From: an uncultured Clostridia bacterium
GTDB lineage: Bacteria > Bacillota > Clostridia > TANB77 > CAG-508
Length of the DNA stretch: 44,902 bases
Reading direction: 5' to 3'
Assembly: GCA_947624655.1 (NCBI GenBank)
Contig: CANQLH010000016.1
Location: 1 to 44,902, forward strand
Part shown: in pieces, positions 9,234-13,212 of the stretch
Numbering within the stretch: position 1 is the stretch's first letter
Layout of the letters: each line of letters opens with the position of its first letter
Notes under the pieces: model-generated
The model's database searches: none
What the model was told of the DNA's origin: nothing
What the model saw: the letters and a program-made list of their open reading frames with translations, nothing else
Position numbers and translations under genes: made by a program

Positions 9234-9845
9234 ATGACAATAAATCATAGATTCCTTGTTGTTGTTGATATGCAACACGACTTCATTGATGGAGTGCTTG
9301 AAACACCAGAAGCTAAAGCGATTGTTCCTAAAATTCGGACGCTTATTGATGGCTTAGATAAGGAAAAAGACTATGCTATTTTTACTTACGATACTCATTC
9401 TAAAAATTATCTAAAAACCGCAGAAGGTAAGCATTTACCTATTCCTCATTGTCTTGTTGGAACAGATGGATGGAAAAATGTATTTCCAGAGGCTGAAAGT
9501 GTTAGAACAACCAATGATTCCAGCTTGAATCATATACTAATTGACCGCAAAAACTCTTTTGGTTCTCCTGAACTCTATAATATTATTTTTAAACGCATGA
9601 TGAACATACAGATGGAAGAGTGGAAGCATCATGATTCTGATGTTAAACATGAGTTTCAAATTGAGCTATGTGGAGTTTGTACCGACATTTGTGTAATTAC
9701 AAATGCTCTTGTACTAAAAACAATGTCTCCCGAAACTCCTATCTACATTCATCCCAATGCTTGCGCAGGTGTAACTCCTGAGCTCCATGAAGCCGCTCTT
9801 AAAGTGATGAAAAGTTGTCAGATTGATTTTTTGGAGGATGAATAA
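9234..9845 (+). CDS. Isochorismatase-family cysteine hydrolase, nicotinamidase (PncA)-like
   Basis: 'LVVVDMQHDFIDG' (family signature with catalytic Asp) and 'ELCGVCTDICV' (catalytic Cys context). Start chosen downstream of the promoter rather than the track's 9153. Confidence 0.6.
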   Translation: MTINHRFLVVVDMQHDFIDGVLETPEAKAIVPKIRTLIDGLDKEKDYAIFTYDTHSKNYLKTAEGKHLPIPHCLVGTDGWKNVFPEAESVRTTNDSSLNHILIDRKNSFGSPELYNIIFKRMMNIQMEEWKHHDSDVKHEFQIELCGVCTDICVITNALVLKTMSPETPIYIHPNACAGVTPELHEAALKVMKSCQIDFLEDE

Positions 9846-10712
9846 ATGATACAAGTAGTTTATTATGACGAAGGATTCGGTTCTCCCTTTAAACCAATTA
9901 CAGTAAATATTGGAAGTTTCCCCGATGGCACTCAACATATTACTGTTGATAGGATTGCAACAGAATATAAGCGCAACGAAGGGCGGAAAATAGCAATAGT
10001 ATGGCAGTATGAGAATGATAGTGAGCTTTTCACTGTTATTAGTCTGCGGCAGGCCCTCTCTGGAGCGCTTTCACTCTTTCTTCCATATATCCCAAATGCG
10101 AGAATGGACAGAGCAGAAAATATGGATGATGTGTTTACATTGAAGTCTTTTTGCTCTATAATAAATAGTTTAAATTTTGAGAAAGTATATGTGTTAGATG
10201 CACATAGTAATGTATCTCTTGCACTTTTAGATAGAGTTGTGCATCTATGGCCAGGAACCTTTATTAGTCGCGCTAGAAAGATTATAGGAAACAAAGATAT
10301 TCTTTTCTTCTATCCTGATGCTGGTGCGATGAAGCGCTATACGGAATCAATTCGTATGCCATATGCTTATGCAAATAAAATAAGAGATTGGTCAAGCGGG
10401 AAGATTAAAAGCCTTGAGATTGTCAATAAAGACATGGTTAAGGGACAAGATATCTTGGTTATTGACGATATTTGCTCTCGTGGTGGCACGTTCTTATATG
10501 CGGCAAAGGAGTTGAAAGCTCTTGAAGCCAATGACCTTTATCTTTATATCTCTCATGCAGAAAATACAATGTTTGATGGAGAGATGTATAATGGTCAATG
10601 GTATAAGAAAATCTTTACAACAGATTCTATTTGTAGACCCGCTGGTGCTGATATTTATAATTCCGTTGTCCAATTTCCTTGGACCGATGCGTTTAATGGA
10701 GGAACAGATTGA
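9846..10712 (+). CDS. Ribose-phosphate pyrophosphokinase (Prs) family enzyme; candidate ADPR-pyrophosphate synthetase (Adps-like)
   Basis: 'FPDGTQHITVD' aligns with the Prs FSDGE region. 'ILVIDDICSRGGTFLYAAKELK' matches the PRPP-binding loop (VDDMIDTGGT). Confidence 0.75.
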   Translation: MIQVVYYDEGFGSPFKPITVNIGSFPDGTQHITVDRIATEYKRNEGRKIAIVWQYENDSELFTVISLRQALSGALSLFLPYIPNARMDRAENMDDVFTLKSFCSIINSLNFEKVYVLDAHSNVSLALLDRVVHLWPGTFISRARKIIGNKDILFFYPDAGAMKRYTESIRMPYAYANKIRDWSSGKIKSLEIVNKDMVKGQDILVIDDICSRGGTFLYAAKELKALEANDLYLYISHAENTMFDGEMYNGQWYKKIFTTDSICRPAGADIYNSVVQFPWTDAFNGGTD

Positions 10713-12460
10713 TGATACCACTTCTTCTTATAGATTTCTATAAGGCAACCCATCATGAGCAGTATCCCAAGGGATTAACCAAGATGGTTTCTTACTACAC
10801 TCCGCGTATGAGTCGTTTAAAGGATGTCGATAAAGTTACTCTCTTTGGGCTTCAAGGGTTCATTAAGGAGTACCTTTGTGATATGTTTAATACACATTTT
10901 TTCTGCCGAGGAAAAAGATATGTGGTGGATGAATATAACCGAGTTCTGACATACACGCTCGGTCCTGGTACTTATGATTCTCAGAAAATTGAGGACTTGT
11001 GGAACCTCGGTTATCTGCCTCTTGAAATTTGCGCGGTCCCCGAGGGCACTCGCACCGCAATAGGAGTTCCGCAGATTGAGATAAGCAATACCCATCCTAA
11101 CTTCGTATGGCTTGTCAATACGATTGAAACTATGCTTTCTGCAACTATGTGGCATACACAGGTGTCTGCGGAAGTCGGGTATAGGTATCGTCAAATCGTG
11201 CAGGAATACCACGATTTAACTTGCGATGACGAGATTCCTGTCAGTTCTCTGCTCGGCGATTTCTCTATGAGAGGTCAGCAGTCTGTCGAATCTGCCACAA
11301 AGAGTTCCGCGGCATGGCTGCTTAGCTTCCGCAATACAGCAACAGTTCCCGCCATTCCTTGGCTCGAAAAGAATTACAACTGTAATTGCACTAAAGATAT
11401 TGTAGGATTGGGCGCTATCTCTACTGAGCACTCTGTTATGTGTTCTAACTACGCCATTGATGGCAACGAGATAGCTGGCGTCCGCAGGCTCCTGACAGAG
11501 ATTTATCCCAATAATAACTTCTCTATGGTTTCTGATAGCTATGACTATTGGAACCTTGTAACCAAGATTATTCCTCAGCTACATGATGACATTCTTGAAC
11601 ACAATGGTTGCCTTTCGATTCGTGGAGATAGCGGAGACCCGGTAGAAATTATTGCTGGTCTTCCTTATTATGATATGGATGACAACGCCGTTTCTTGTAT
11701 TACTCCTGTTAAGCACGAATGGAGTATGGAAGATTGGGTATATGAGCAGGCCCATGATTGCGATATCCAGGAAGATTCCACTTGGATTATTAAGTGGAGA
11801 GGACATTTCTATCGTGTTCATATCAAACCCGAATGGGCAAATGAGCGCGGCGGTTATACTGATAATAAGTATTATTTCCTTGAAGATTATTCTATTACAA
11901 TCGAAGAGGACATTCTTCCTACCGCCGAGGAAATGGGTACTGTCTGGGCTCTTTGGCAGGAGTTTGGCGGCACAATCAATAGCAAAGGATACAAGGTGCT
12001 TAATCCTCACGTAAAAGCTATTTACGGGGATAGTATTACCCCGCAGCGTTGTGAGAAGATTTATAGGCGTCTCATGGACAAGGGGTTTGCAATTAATAAT
12101 GTGACTCTTGGCGTTGGTAGCTTCTCGTTCATGTGTCTTGAGACTTATGACGAAGATGGCGATGTTCATTATAGTCCTTATACAAGAGATACCTTTGGTA
12201 TCGCAGTTAAAGCCACATATGCCGAAGACGCCGATGGGAATCCTATTATGATTTATAAGCAGCCAAAAGCTCTTTCTTGGAAGAAGTCTCAGAAAGGATG
12301 CTGCATAGTCGCAGAAGATGGACAATCTTATACCGATGAACACACATGGGAAGAAGTTCAGAATAATAACTTGCTCCAGACAGTATTTAAAGATGGAGTG
12401 ATGGTAAAAGAAACAACCCTTAGTGAAGTCAGAAAGAGAATGTATGGAGGTAATTGGTAA
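10709..12460 (+). CDS. Nicotinamide phosphoribosyltransferase family (NadV/NAMPT-like; candidate Namat)
   Basis: 'LLLIDFYKATHHEQYP' vs NAMPT 'LLATDSYKVTHYKQYP'; 'SDSYDYWN' vs 'SDSYDIYN'; 'RGDSGDP' vs 'RPDSGNP'; 'AIYGDSI' vs 'VIQGDGV'. Start overlaps the upstream stop. Confidence 0.8.
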   Translation: MMIPLLLIDFYKATHHEQYPKGLTKMVSYYTPRMSRLKDVDKVTLFGLQGFIKEYLCDMFNTHFFCRGKRYVVDEYNRVLTYTLGPGTYDSQKIEDLWNLGYLPLEICAVPEGTRTAIGVPQIEISNTHPNFVWLVNTIETMLSATMWHTQVSAEVGYRYRQIVQEYHDLTCDDEIPVSSLLGDFSMRGQQSVESATKSSAAWLLSFRNTATVPAIPWLEKNYNCNCTKDIVGLGAISTEHSVMCSNYAIDGNEIAGVRRLLTEIYPNNNFSMVSDSYDYWNLVTKIIPQLHDDILEHNGCLSIRGDSGDPVEIIAGLPYYDMDDNAVSCITPVKHEWSMEDWVYEQAHDCDIQEDSTWIIKWRGHFYRVHIKPEWANERGGYTDNKYYFLEDYSITIEEDILPTAEEMGTVWALWQEFGGTINSKGYKVLNPHVKAIYGDSITPQRCEKIYRRLMDKGFAINNVTLGVGSFSFMCLETYDEDGDVHYSPYTRDTFGIAVKATYAEDADGNPIMIYKQPKALSWKKSQKGCCIVAEDGQSYTDEHTWEEVQNNNLLQTVFKDGVMVKETTLSEVRKRMYGGNW

Positions 12461-13212
12461 TGGTTGAACAAATTTGTGGAGAAATCCGTGAATACTTTGT
12501 TAAACAGGGAAAAGGAACAAGAGCAGTCATTGGCATTTCTGGTGGTAAGGATAGCTCCGTTGCGGCCGCCCTGGTATGTCGCGCTTTAGGGCCAGAACGA
12601 GTGATTGCTGTAAAGATGCCTTACGGTGTCCAGCATGACATTGCTTTCTCTAATGCTATCATCGAAACGCTTGGTATTCCTGAAGCCAATGTGTTTGAGG
12701 TAAATATCGAACCCATCTGCGATGCAATTTATAAAGCTATTCCTCCTGCCTTCGCCGATGATAAGGTCGTTACTTCTAACCTTCCCGCCCGGGTCCGCAT
12801 GACCATTCTTTATGCTTTTGCTAATGCAAAGCACGGTCGAGTGATTAATACGAGTAATAGGAGTGAAGCCTATGTTGGATACACCACCAAATGGGGCGAT
12901 AACGTGGGCGATTATGCCGTATTGCAGGACTTAACTGCTACTGAAGTAAAAGTTGTAGGACGAGCTTTAGGACTCGATGAAAAGTTTATCGAAAAGCCGC
13001 CCGAGGATGGCCTTTCTGGCCTAACTGATGAAGCCAATATGGGCTTCACATATGAATCTATTGATAAAGTAATTACTGCTAGCCCAAAAAGTAAATCTCA
13101 TAACGCTGTACCTTTTGACGAATTTGAGCCTATCGAGCTGAGACACATTCAGAGCGAGCATAAGCGTTGCGTCAATCTCCCAGGTCCAGACATTAAGGTG
13201 TACTGGTTTTAA
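12454..13212 (+). CDS. nadE: NH3-dependent NAD+ synthetase (NadE)
   Basis: PP-loop 'IGISGGKDSS'; 'MPYGVQ' (NadE LPYGVQ); 'TKWGDNVGD' (NadE TKYGDGG); 'GFTYESID' (NadE GVTYDNID). Confidence 0.8.
   Translation: MVMVEQICGEIREYFVKQGKGTRAVIGISGGKDSSVAAALVCRALGPERVIAVKMPYGVQHDIAFSNAIIETLGIPEANVFEVNIEPICDAIYKAIPPAFADDKVVTSNLPARVRMTILYAFANAKHGRVINTSNRSEAYVGYTTKWGDNVGDYAVLQDLTATEVKVVGRALGLDEKFIEKPPEDGLSGLTDEANMGFTYESIDKVITASPKSKSHNAVPFDEFEPIELRHIQSEHKRCVNLPGPDIKVYWF

Follow-up and report, generated by a model that had tools for sequence, protein, structure and literature searches.

A phage-type four-gene operon predicted to rebuild NAD+ from ADP-ribose through nicotinic acid

The contig CANQLH010000016.1 of an uncultured Clostridia bacterium (assembly GCA_947624655.1), analyzed here over positions 1-44,902 of the forward strand (this stretch is called the window below), carries at positions 9234-13212 of the + strand four closely packed genes for a PncA-like nicotinamidase, an Adps-like ADP-ribose (ADPR) pyrophosphokinase, a Namat-like ADP-ribose transferase, and the NAD+ synthetase NadE. 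We consider it probable that this module is a variant of the phage NAD+-reconstitution route NARP1 that runs through nicotinic acid, a "deamidated NARP1." The transferase has Ala in place of the Asp that binds the amide of nicotinamide in Namat, and across related viral loci the genes for NadE and the PncA-like protein accompany transferases with Ala or Ser at this site and none of those with Asp. The support for the nicotinic-acid branch is comparative and structural; from it we infer all four enzymatic steps, above all the one assigned to the transferase, as well as an anti-defense role.

Depletion of NAD+ is among the commonest bacterial antiviral strategies. To our knowledge, the phage routes NARP1, NARP1-AP, NARP2, and NARP3 all come from cultured phages whose hosts are Proteobacteria or Bacilli, and we know of no organism in which the reaction of nicotinic acid with ADPR pyrophosphate (ADPR-PP) to nicotinic acid adenine dinucleotide (NaAD) has been described. 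NARP1 consists of Adps and Namat and is represented by phages Bas63, SPbetaL1, and Fado (Osterman et al. 2024). NARP1-AP adds a Macro-domain ADPR-1''-phosphate phosphatase, Adpp, which converts ADPR-1''-phosphate to ADPR (Osterman et al. 2026, preprint), NARP2 combines NAMPT and NMNAT in Vibrio phage KVP40 (Osterman 2024), and NARP3 consists of PnuC and NadR. Related literature includes the structure of Namat (Lan 2026) and RyDEP. In the phage NAD+-reconstitution papers that were text-searched, NadE, nicotinamidase, and PncA are not mentioned, and "nicotinic acid" appears only in the general pathway overview of the NARP3 paper; nor did full-text literature searches that paired NadE, nicotinamidase, or PncA with either NARP1 or NAD+ reconstitution bring up a relevant paper.

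Results

Organization of the NAD block

The genes of the block and the signals upstream of it are as follows.

9234-9845, + strand: PncA-like nicotinamidase, 203 amino acids (aa); Pfam Isochorismatase, 64 bits
9846-10712, + strand: Adps-like ADP-ribose pyrophosphokinase, 288 aa; phrog_619 ("ribose-phosphate pyrophosphokinase"), 214 bits
10712-12460, + strand: Namat-like ADP-ribose transferase of the Ala/Ser type, 582 aa from ATG; phrog_448 ("nicotinamide phosphoribosyl transferase"), 521 bits; NAPRTase and NAMPT_N
12460-13212, + strand: NH3-dependent NAD+ synthetase NadE, 250 aa from ATG; PF02540, 172 bits; TIGR00552, 167 bits (cut-off 63.65)
9155-9178, + strand: terminator-like hairpin 3' of the RNA ligase gene; consensus match only
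9172-9200, + strand: promoter-like site TTGCCT-17-TATAAT with TG (extended -10); consensus match only

An original prediction, made from the DNA letters, had placed a four-gene NAD+ salvage block at 9234-13212 with an isochorismatase-fold nicotinamidase-like protein at its head. Four + strand open reading frames (ORFs) lie exactly there, the family scans agree with the assignments, and the first protein keeps both the catalytic triad and the zinc site of its fold. The motifs quoted in that prediction (FPDG, DDICSRGGT, DFYKATHHEQYP, SDSYDYWN, GISGGKDSS, MPYGVQ, and TKWGDNVGD) were all found in the translations.

The PncA-like and Adps-like genes abut at 9845/9846, and the two later junctions are one-base stop/start overlaps at 10712 and 12460 (TGATG and TAATG); this packing indicates that the four genes form one operon. 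A longer ORF from 9153 would add 27 residues to the PncA-like protein, and since these are missing in the homologues examined, ATG 9234 is the likely start. An AAGGA resembling a Shine-Dalgarno sequence lies about 9 nucleotides 5' of this ATG (consensus match only), and the 9155-9200 region is likely the start of the NAD transcription unit. For the Namat-like gene, an alternative TTG start at 10709 would give 583 aa. A megablast search with the block found no match among 50,697 phage records. The four-gene set is far beyond chance; it is repeated in a number of independent viral and bacterial-genome loci well above 100.

Remodeling of the base pocket of the transferase

Seven residues make up the nicotinamide pocket in the crystal structure of SPbetaL1 Namat (F189, R192, D215, A242, R306, D13', and Y15'; Lan et al.), and the pocket geometry used here is taken from that published description. 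The carboxylate of Namat D215, equivalent to D219 of human NAMPT, hydrogen-bonds the nicotinamide amide and has been described as the residue that sets nicotinamide specificity. In the window transferase, the SPbetaL1 Namat motif LLSFTGTDTIPAI reads LLSFRNTATVPAI, both in an ungapped alignment and in a MAFFT alignment, and two of the seven residues are exchanged (numbering from TTG 10709).

11339-11341, + strand: codon of Ala211 (motif NTAT), replacing SPbetaL1 D215 / human NAMPT D219
11420-11422, + strand: codon of Ser238, replacing SPbetaL1 Namat Ala242

The NTAT motif of the Ala type is present in the best 120 of 6,695 database homologues with E <= 1e-30. In an alignment of 157 sequences, comprising 150 cluster representatives at 50% identity and 7 references, the D215 site holds Asp in 96, Ala in 38, Ser in 18, Val in 1, and Glu in 1, with a gap in the remaining 3. 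Alignment columns were then ranked by their power to discriminate between the Asp type and the Ala/Ser type. The two leading columns were D215 and A242; at the latter, Ser is found in 55 of the 56 Ala/Ser-type and Ala in 95 of the 96 Asp-type sequences. G213 is replaced by Asn or Lys in 42/56 Ala/Ser-type sequences, and H187 and S239 switch too. The other five pocket residues (F189, R192, R306, D13', and Y15') are invariant in both groups, and the catalytic residues remain, as do the ribose, phosphate, and adenine contacts (R40, F392, and T398-R399-D400). The identity of the switching columns therefore indicates that the base site has been remodeled with retention of the catalytic machinery and most ADP-ribose contacts.

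Substitutions at this site have been made in the laboratory. In Namat, the D215A exchange cuts the synthesis of NAD+ from nicotinamide by a factor of 8.1 (PMC12774641). In the list given by PMC4919578, which cites Khan 2006, human NAMPT D219A appears among the variants that lose activity and D219S among those that "switch the substrate affinity." Because its amide-binding Asp is Ala and its A242 equivalent is Ser, the window transferase is best described as a relative of Namat and ought not to be annotated as transferring nicotinamide.

Co-occurrence of pocket type with NadE and PncA

Genomic context was collected by alignment-seeded scans of IMG/VR, which yielded 168 loci, each with a flank of at most 8 kb on either side; a few annotated phage records were added. 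A locus search of IMG/VR with a single protein gave 2 loci only, and alignment-based queries were used instead. For each locus, the residue at the D215 site was noted, and tblastn was used to look for Adps, NadE, PncA-like, and Macro genes; the counts refer to non-redundant loci.

Ala/Ser type, 81 viral loci: Adps 78, NadE 79, PncA-like 73, Macro 59
Asp type, 55 viral loci: Adps 51, NadE 0, PncA-like 0, Macro 8
Glu type, 7 viral loci: Adps 7, NadE 0, PncA-like 0, Macro 0

Neither the PncA-like gene nor NadE, which the original prediction had set outside the described two-gene module, stands beside any of the 62 Asp- or Glu-type viral loci. Where Ala/Ser-type viral loci have ample flanks, NadE is found in 68/70, PncA in 66/70, and both in 65/70, and several of the Ala/Ser-type loci that lack PncA end at contig edges. 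A scan of one genome per GTDB species added 79 Ala-type loci, with NadE in 68, PncA in 73, and Adps in 75 (NadE 51/54 and PncA 53/54 with ample flanks). These come mostly from Lachnospiraceae, Oscillospiraceae, Acutalibacteraceae, and Ruminococcus, and the isolates among them include Dysosmobacter segnis and Pseudoruminococcus massiliensis.

The association extends to distant members of the family. It is seen in a divergent Ser-type clade (loci L092-L096) and in Phass-1, whose transferase is 31% identical to that of the window and has a canonical 13-residue clamp; the annotated order in Phass-1 is nicotinamidase, ribose-phosphate pyrophosphokinase, nicotinamide phosphoribosyltransferase, a hypothetical gene, and a NadE-like gene. 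The association also spans the three main gene orders, which are Adps-Namat-Macro-NadE-PncA (28 loci), PncA-Adps-Namat-NadE, which is that of the window (20 loci), and PncA-Adps-Namat-Macro-NadE (20 loci). Among the annotated phage records, 2,014 have a Namat/NAMPT homologue, 49 have NadE, and 12 have the PncA-like protein. Pairwise distances of the four proteins are correlated over 90 modules (Mantel r 0.55-0.82; 0/300 permutations reach the observed value), which indicates that the four genes diverged together. The Fisher p of ~1e-38 for the association is descriptive only and overstates independence, because the loci are phylogenetically related.

The Macro gene lies within the operon in the 59 viral Ala/Ser relatives that carry it, usually between Namat and NadE. 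The Macro genes of two relatives were scanned; they pass Pfam PF01661 and resemble the NARP1-AP phosphatase Adpp. An embedded gene of the ADPR-1''-phosphate phosphatase type suggests ADPR, rather than ribose-5-phosphate, as the sugar donor. Cultured phages in the sample are of the Asp type, and the Ala/Ser type occurs almost only in metagenomic gut phages and in Clostridia genomes or metagenome-assembled genomes (MAGs), among which it is abundant.

Separately, a small Namat group (L109, L118, L124, L134, L135, L140, and L149) has Glu at the amide site (GSET), and its Adps gene lies downstream instead of upstream.

Family placement of the transferase and the Adps-like protein

Among all PDB sequences, the top match of the transferase is SPbetaL1 Namat (9w5x/9w5w, 407 bits), compared with 308 bits for H. 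ducreyi NadV and 127-137 bits for Xanthomonas (Xcc) and human/mammalian NAMPT. The best Foldseek matches of its AlphaFold2 (AF2) model, which has a mean predicted local distance difference test score (pLDDT) of 84.5, are likewise Namat entries, 9w5x reaching a template modeling (TM) score of 0.91 (target-normalized). The Namat core is kept, including the catalytic His, R306, D308, G360-D361, G390-S391, and R399, and the gene adjoins the Adps-like gene through the one-base overlap given above.

With SPbetaL1 Adps, an enzyme validated by biochemistry, the Adps-like protein shares 35% identity (137 bits, E 2e-43). The catalytic lysine of that enzyme, K162, corresponds to K178 of the window protein, which also contains DDICSRGGT, a loop of the phosphoribosyl pyrophosphate (PRPP) type. 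Against solved Prs structures it scores 66.6 bits at most, and it falls under every NCBIfam Prs cut-off (e.g., TIGR01251, 75.5 vs 113). Published biochemistry shows that SPbetaL1 Adps pyrophosphorylates ADPR and makes no PRPP. By these comparisons the window protein falls within the phage Adps clade, apart from cellular Prs, and activity on ADPR is predicted for it. As the two proteins are closer to SPbetaL1 Namat and Adps than to NAMPT and solved Prs, the pair is NARP1-like, in keeping with the original prediction, which had read the Prs-like and NAMPT-like genes as a NARP1-type couple.

Two regions set the window transferase apart from SPbetaL1 Namat.

11669-11932, + strand: 88-residue insertion (aa 321-408) relative to SPbetaL1 Namat, from the sequence alignment and AF2
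12110-12190, + strand: selectivity-clamp helix region GVGSFSFMCLETYDEDGDVHYSPYTRD, both ends of which resemble the Namat motif GSX-Phi-X-Phi-X-Phi-TRD; 14-residue insertion

AF2 predicts, with good confidence, that the 88-residue insertion forms a surface helix and three long beta-strands. It was considered as the cause of a substrate change and ruled out, since it also occurs in the Asp-type Namat of Bacillus phage Tsamsa and is missing from many Ala-type relatives. In the clamp region, GSFSFM[CLETYDEDGDVH]Y[SP]YTRD, the aromatic residue at position 3 and the TRD are present, and the 14-residue insertion breaks the register; the AF2 model has a short helix and a beta-hairpin here, at pLDDT ~65-70. 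The canonical 13-residue clamp motif is found in the Ala/Ser-type sequences Phass-1, P0133, and P0142. The clamp-loop stacking residue of SPbetaL1, R40, is aligned with R36 of the window, and Arg is found at this position in 46/56 Ala/Ser-type sequences.

An unrelated feature of the clamp was seen in the Asp-type Namat homologues P0165, P0174, and P0201, which have an insertion of ~280 residues exactly within the motif (GS[FY]C...SHNTYQ[MY][NV]TRD). Its boundary residues suggest an intein.

The PncA-like and NadE proteins

The best PDB match of the PncA-like protein is the pyrazinamidase/nicotinamidase of P. horikoshii, 1im5, with D10, D52, H54, and H71 aligned; C153 falls in a second stretch aligned to the same structure. 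Conservation of this protein and of NadE was examined in 143 unique aligned sequences, comprising the window protein and its module-linked homologues. The PncA-like triad D12/K106/C153 and the Zn ligands D53/H55/H72 are kept in at least 95% of them. With the NCBIfam equivalog of the E. coli type the protein scores 23.5 bits, against a cut-off of 174, and it is therefore a distant member of the nicotinamidases.

NadE is a single-domain protein that lacks the glutaminase domain. Its best PDB match is P. horikoshii NadE (2e18, E 1.4e-36), and the SGGxDS P-loop and other core residues are kept in at least 95% of the 143 sequences.

PncA-like genes without the module (L007-L011) were considered as counter-examples and dropped, because at least L011, and probably also L008, has the look of a bacterial contig deposited as phage. 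On L011 (MT835572.1), a homologue 35% identical to the window protein lies directly upstream of a canonical PncB; the PncA-PncB pair occupies 9007-10998, and the contig also carries cellulase and nitroreductase genes. L008 (MT835706.1) encodes carboxylesterases and tRNA-editing proteins. Some GenBank fecal "Bacteriophage sp." contigs with a PncA-like gene, such as these two, thus look bacterial and may be misfiled.

Neighborhood of the block and the rest of the window

The genes on either side of the NAD block make up a divided RNA-repair set.

7876-9150: RNA ligase, upstream of the NAD block
13215-13931: NinI/lambda-phosphatase-like metallophosphoesterase, beginning 2 nucleotides after NadE
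14095-14619: polynucleotide-kinase-like P-loop protein
14744-15214: second phosphoesterase

The kinase-like and phosphatase-like proteins both match segments of phrog_8238, a 737-aa kinase-phosphatase-ligase. The metallophosphoesterase at 13215-13931 was considered as a fifth member of the module or a substitute for Macro, which is unlikely given its RNA-repair matches, its pairing with the polynucleotide-kinase-like and RNA ligase genes, and its occurrence near (8 kb) only 11/81 related modules. It probably serves RNA repair rather than NAD metabolism; hydrolysis of ADPR-cyclic phosphate or ADPR-1''-phosphate is a possible activity. Extra genes inside the NAD operons of relatives (L024 6563-7768, L017 6688-7230, L095 9847-10695, and L184 9704-10492) include an RtcB RNA ligase, a Thg1-like tRNA-His guanylyltransferase, and ORFs resembling HNH/GIY-type homing endonucleases (by motif only). 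The neighborhood of the block suggests a shared counter-defense and repair island with mobile-element traffic.

Replication proteins are encoded in the rest of the window, namely gyrase, DnaB, Pol III alpha, an SF1 helicase, and an ATP-dependent DNA ligase. In-frame TAG codons are apparently read as sense, in the manner of genetic code 15, at 33579-35129, 39565-40731, and 35325-36419. With TAG taken as Gln, the DnaB_C match grows from profile positions 9-173 to 9-244 of 255, and the SF1 helicase gains a UvrD_C_2 domain 3' of the TAG. The window contains no tRNA gene, and each of the four NAD genes has TAA or TGA as its stop codon. Phass-1, a relative, is listed under the "Caudoviricetes code 15 clade."

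Five further loci of the window were recorded.

582-3011: 809-aa protein with major-vault-protein shoulder (61 bits) and repeat (39 bits) domains, unusual for a phage and with no PHROG match
3738-5374: nucleotidyltransferase and metallophosphoesterase pair, upstream of the RNA ligase
6370-7269: radical SAM protein
15242-16774: SPFH/flotillin-like protein with a long Ala/Glu-rich coiled region
18657-19604: PIN and PhoH-like ATPase ORF ending at position 76 of 205 of the PhoH profile, which may be read-through

Discussion

In the proposed route, a host NADase would split NAD+ into ADP-ribose and nicotinamide. The PncA-like enzyme would convert nicotinamide to nicotinic acid and NH3, the Adps-like enzyme would convert ADPR and ATP to ADPR-PP and AMP, the Ala-type transferase would join nicotinic acid and ADPR-PP to form NaAD and PPi, which would be a new reaction, and NadE would complete the route by converting NaAD, ATP, and NH3 to NAD+. 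The net conversion would be ADPR + nicotinamide + 2 ATP to NAD+. Such a set would be self-sufficient because no adenylyltransferase is needed, and neither an adenylyltransferase family nor PnuC was found by Pfam, PHROGs, and NCBIfam in the part of the window ORFs that was scanned (44.9 kb, not a whole genome). The deamidated route would explain why a nicotinamidase shares an operon with a "nicotinamide" transferase and why NadE tracks the pocket residue. The original prediction had proposed PncA and NadE as a nicotinic-acid branch, a proposal now supported by the replacement of D215 by Ala and A242 by Ser and by the co-occurrence of NadE and PncA with the Ala/Ser type. A counter-defense role for the module is suggested by homology. 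We lean toward the fuller statement that the Ala/Ser-type "Namat" is a nicotinate ADP-ribose transferase and forms, with PncA, Adps, and NadE, a distinct, self-sufficient NAD+ pathway, widespread in phages and prophages of gut Clostridia, that would overcome NAD+-depleting immunity where free nicotinamide is unavailable or quickly deamidated.

Several points weigh against this interpretation. The activity of the Ala/Ser-type enzyme is a prediction from comparison, and Ser238 could hydrogen-bond the amide, so that use of nicotinamide remains conceivable. The clamp helix carries the 14-residue insertion and its Y396 equivalent is not conserved; with the clamp interrupted and this residue lost, the preference for ADPR-PP over PRPP is uncertain for the window clade. 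The Francisella NMN-synthetase-type NadE (3fiu) scores close to other NadEs, and because the scores to both kinds are comparable, NaAD cannot be told from nicotinic acid mononucleotide (NaMN) as the NadE substrate by sequence. A tblastn search with Macro sequences of related operons found no Macro gene in the window. Ala-type loci without NadE (L004, L049, L209, and L254) or without PncA (L079 and L093) exist despite ample flanks. A simple neighbor-joining tree places the Ala/Ser sequences in one large clade with the extended clamp and in basal lineages with the canonical clamp; a single ancient event, or a few, may therefore underlie the association. Finally, deamidating nicotinamide only to re-amidate it later brings no obvious advantage. 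As speculation, nicotinic acid may free the route from dependence on free nicotinamide where a host nicotinamidase is active, may draw on an abundant nicotinic acid pool of gut Clostridia and anaerobes, or may allow an ATP-driven, irreversible last step to pull the flux.

Some of these points would fit a canonical NARP1, in which the transferase makes NAD+ from nicotinamide and ADPR-PP, and PncA and NadE, as auxiliary metabolic genes, only boost the Preiss-Handler pathway of the host through host PncB and NadD. The homology to Adps and Namat is clear, Ser238 or a water molecule might stand in for the Asp hydrogen bond, a few Ala-type loci do without NadE or PncA, and NadE stands alone in unrelated phages, such as cyanophages. 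Generic helpers, however, would not track a pocket residue, which makes this role improbable for genes found beside 0/62 Asp/Glu-type loci and, for NadE, beside 79/81 of the Ala/Ser type. In addition, Namat D215A is ~8-fold weaker with nicotinamide, NAMPT D219A is listed as inactive, and a phage PncA would destroy the nicotinamide needed by the Namat of its own operon. We regard this alternative as unlikely. A PRPP-based phage Preiss-Handler route, in which the Prs-like protein makes PRPP, nicotinic acid and PRPP yield NaMN, and either host NadD and phage NadE follow or NadE acts on NaMN as an NMN synthetase, would accommodate the interrupted clamp, the lost Y396 equivalent, and the lack of Macro in the window. 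Namat can use PRPP in vitro, as published, and the NCBIfam family is named "nicotinate phosphoribosyltransferase," a matter of name only. This route is nonetheless quite unlikely, given that the Prs-like protein groups with Adps, which makes no PRPP, and misses the Prs family cut-offs, and that the adenine contacts R40, F392, and TRD are conserved. Ala/Ser lineages with a canonical clamp also exist, among which Phass-1, whose context was examined, has PncA and NadE; an ADPR-specific Macro gene is embedded in 59/81 viral relatives; and the adenylyltransferase that the route would require is absent from the operon.

The module might instead overproduce NAD+ for phage replication in general, independently of host immunity; NARP2 is published to raise NAD+ even without a defense system. 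The route begins with ADPR, though, which builds up only after NAD+ cleavage, the block sits among RNA-repair genes typical of counter-defense, and the Macro gene of the relatives resembles the anti-aRES phosphatase Adpp, all of which leaves this explanation very improbable. A hybrid salvage route that keeps working when nicotinamide is sequestered or inhibitory, the alternative offered by the original prediction, is possible.

The deamidated NARP1 favored here shares with NARP1 the neighboring Adps-like and Namat-like genes and their order, SPbetaL1 Namat as the nearest relative of the transferase, the Adps catalytic Lys, the Namat catalytic His, R306, and D308, and the R40/F392/TRD contacts. 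It differs in the exchange of D215 for Ala and A242 for Ser, in the 14-residue clamp insertion, in having NadE and nicotinamidase fixed in the operon (never beside Asp-type NARP1), and in the predicted transferase product, NaAD rather than NAD+. NARP1-AP also adds an accessory enzyme to the operon of the two core genes, and Macro is common in the viral Ala/Ser relatives; unlike NARP1-AP, the window lacks Macro, and the added PncA and NadE would act on the pyridine base rather than the ADPR moiety. NARP2 and NARP3 are likewise phage-encoded means of rebuilding NAD+, proposed or shown to act against NAD+-depleting immunity, and NARP2 has a homologous type II phosphoribosyltransferase. Both, however, run via NMN and need an adenylyltransferase, of which none, nor PnuC, is among the window ORFs scanned, and the window transferase adjoins Adps and clusters with Namat rather than with KVP40-type or cellular NAMPT. 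NARP3, as PnuC plus NadR, was rejected as a relative and is unrelated.

The Preiss-Handler pathway (PncA, PncB, NadD, and NadE) has the same first and last chemistry and a nicotinic acid intermediate, but PncB and NadD, which work via NaMN, would be replaced by Adps and an ADP-ribose transferase, and the source of the AMP moiety would be recycled ADPR, where the Preiss-Handler pathway adds this moiety from ATP. At the position of Ala211, the natural Ser and Ala match the human NAMPT variants D219S, listed as a substrate switch, and D219A, listed as inactive with nicotinamide (Khan et al. 2006, as cited in PMC4919578). Those were laboratory changes in a PRPP-using enzyme; here, the changes are natural and subfamily-wide, and they come with A242S and G213N/K.

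The Ala/Ser module may have been overlooked because earlier surveys dealt mostly with cultured phages, which are Asp-type in the present sample. If the proposed route is true, the module would add a fourth phage chemistry against NAD+ depletion, with a predicted new reaction. The residue at the D215 site, Asp versus Ala/Ser, together with A242S, would provide a sequence marker to split the pathway types in annotation, and the substrate-switch position of human NAMPT engineering would prove to be one that is used in nature.

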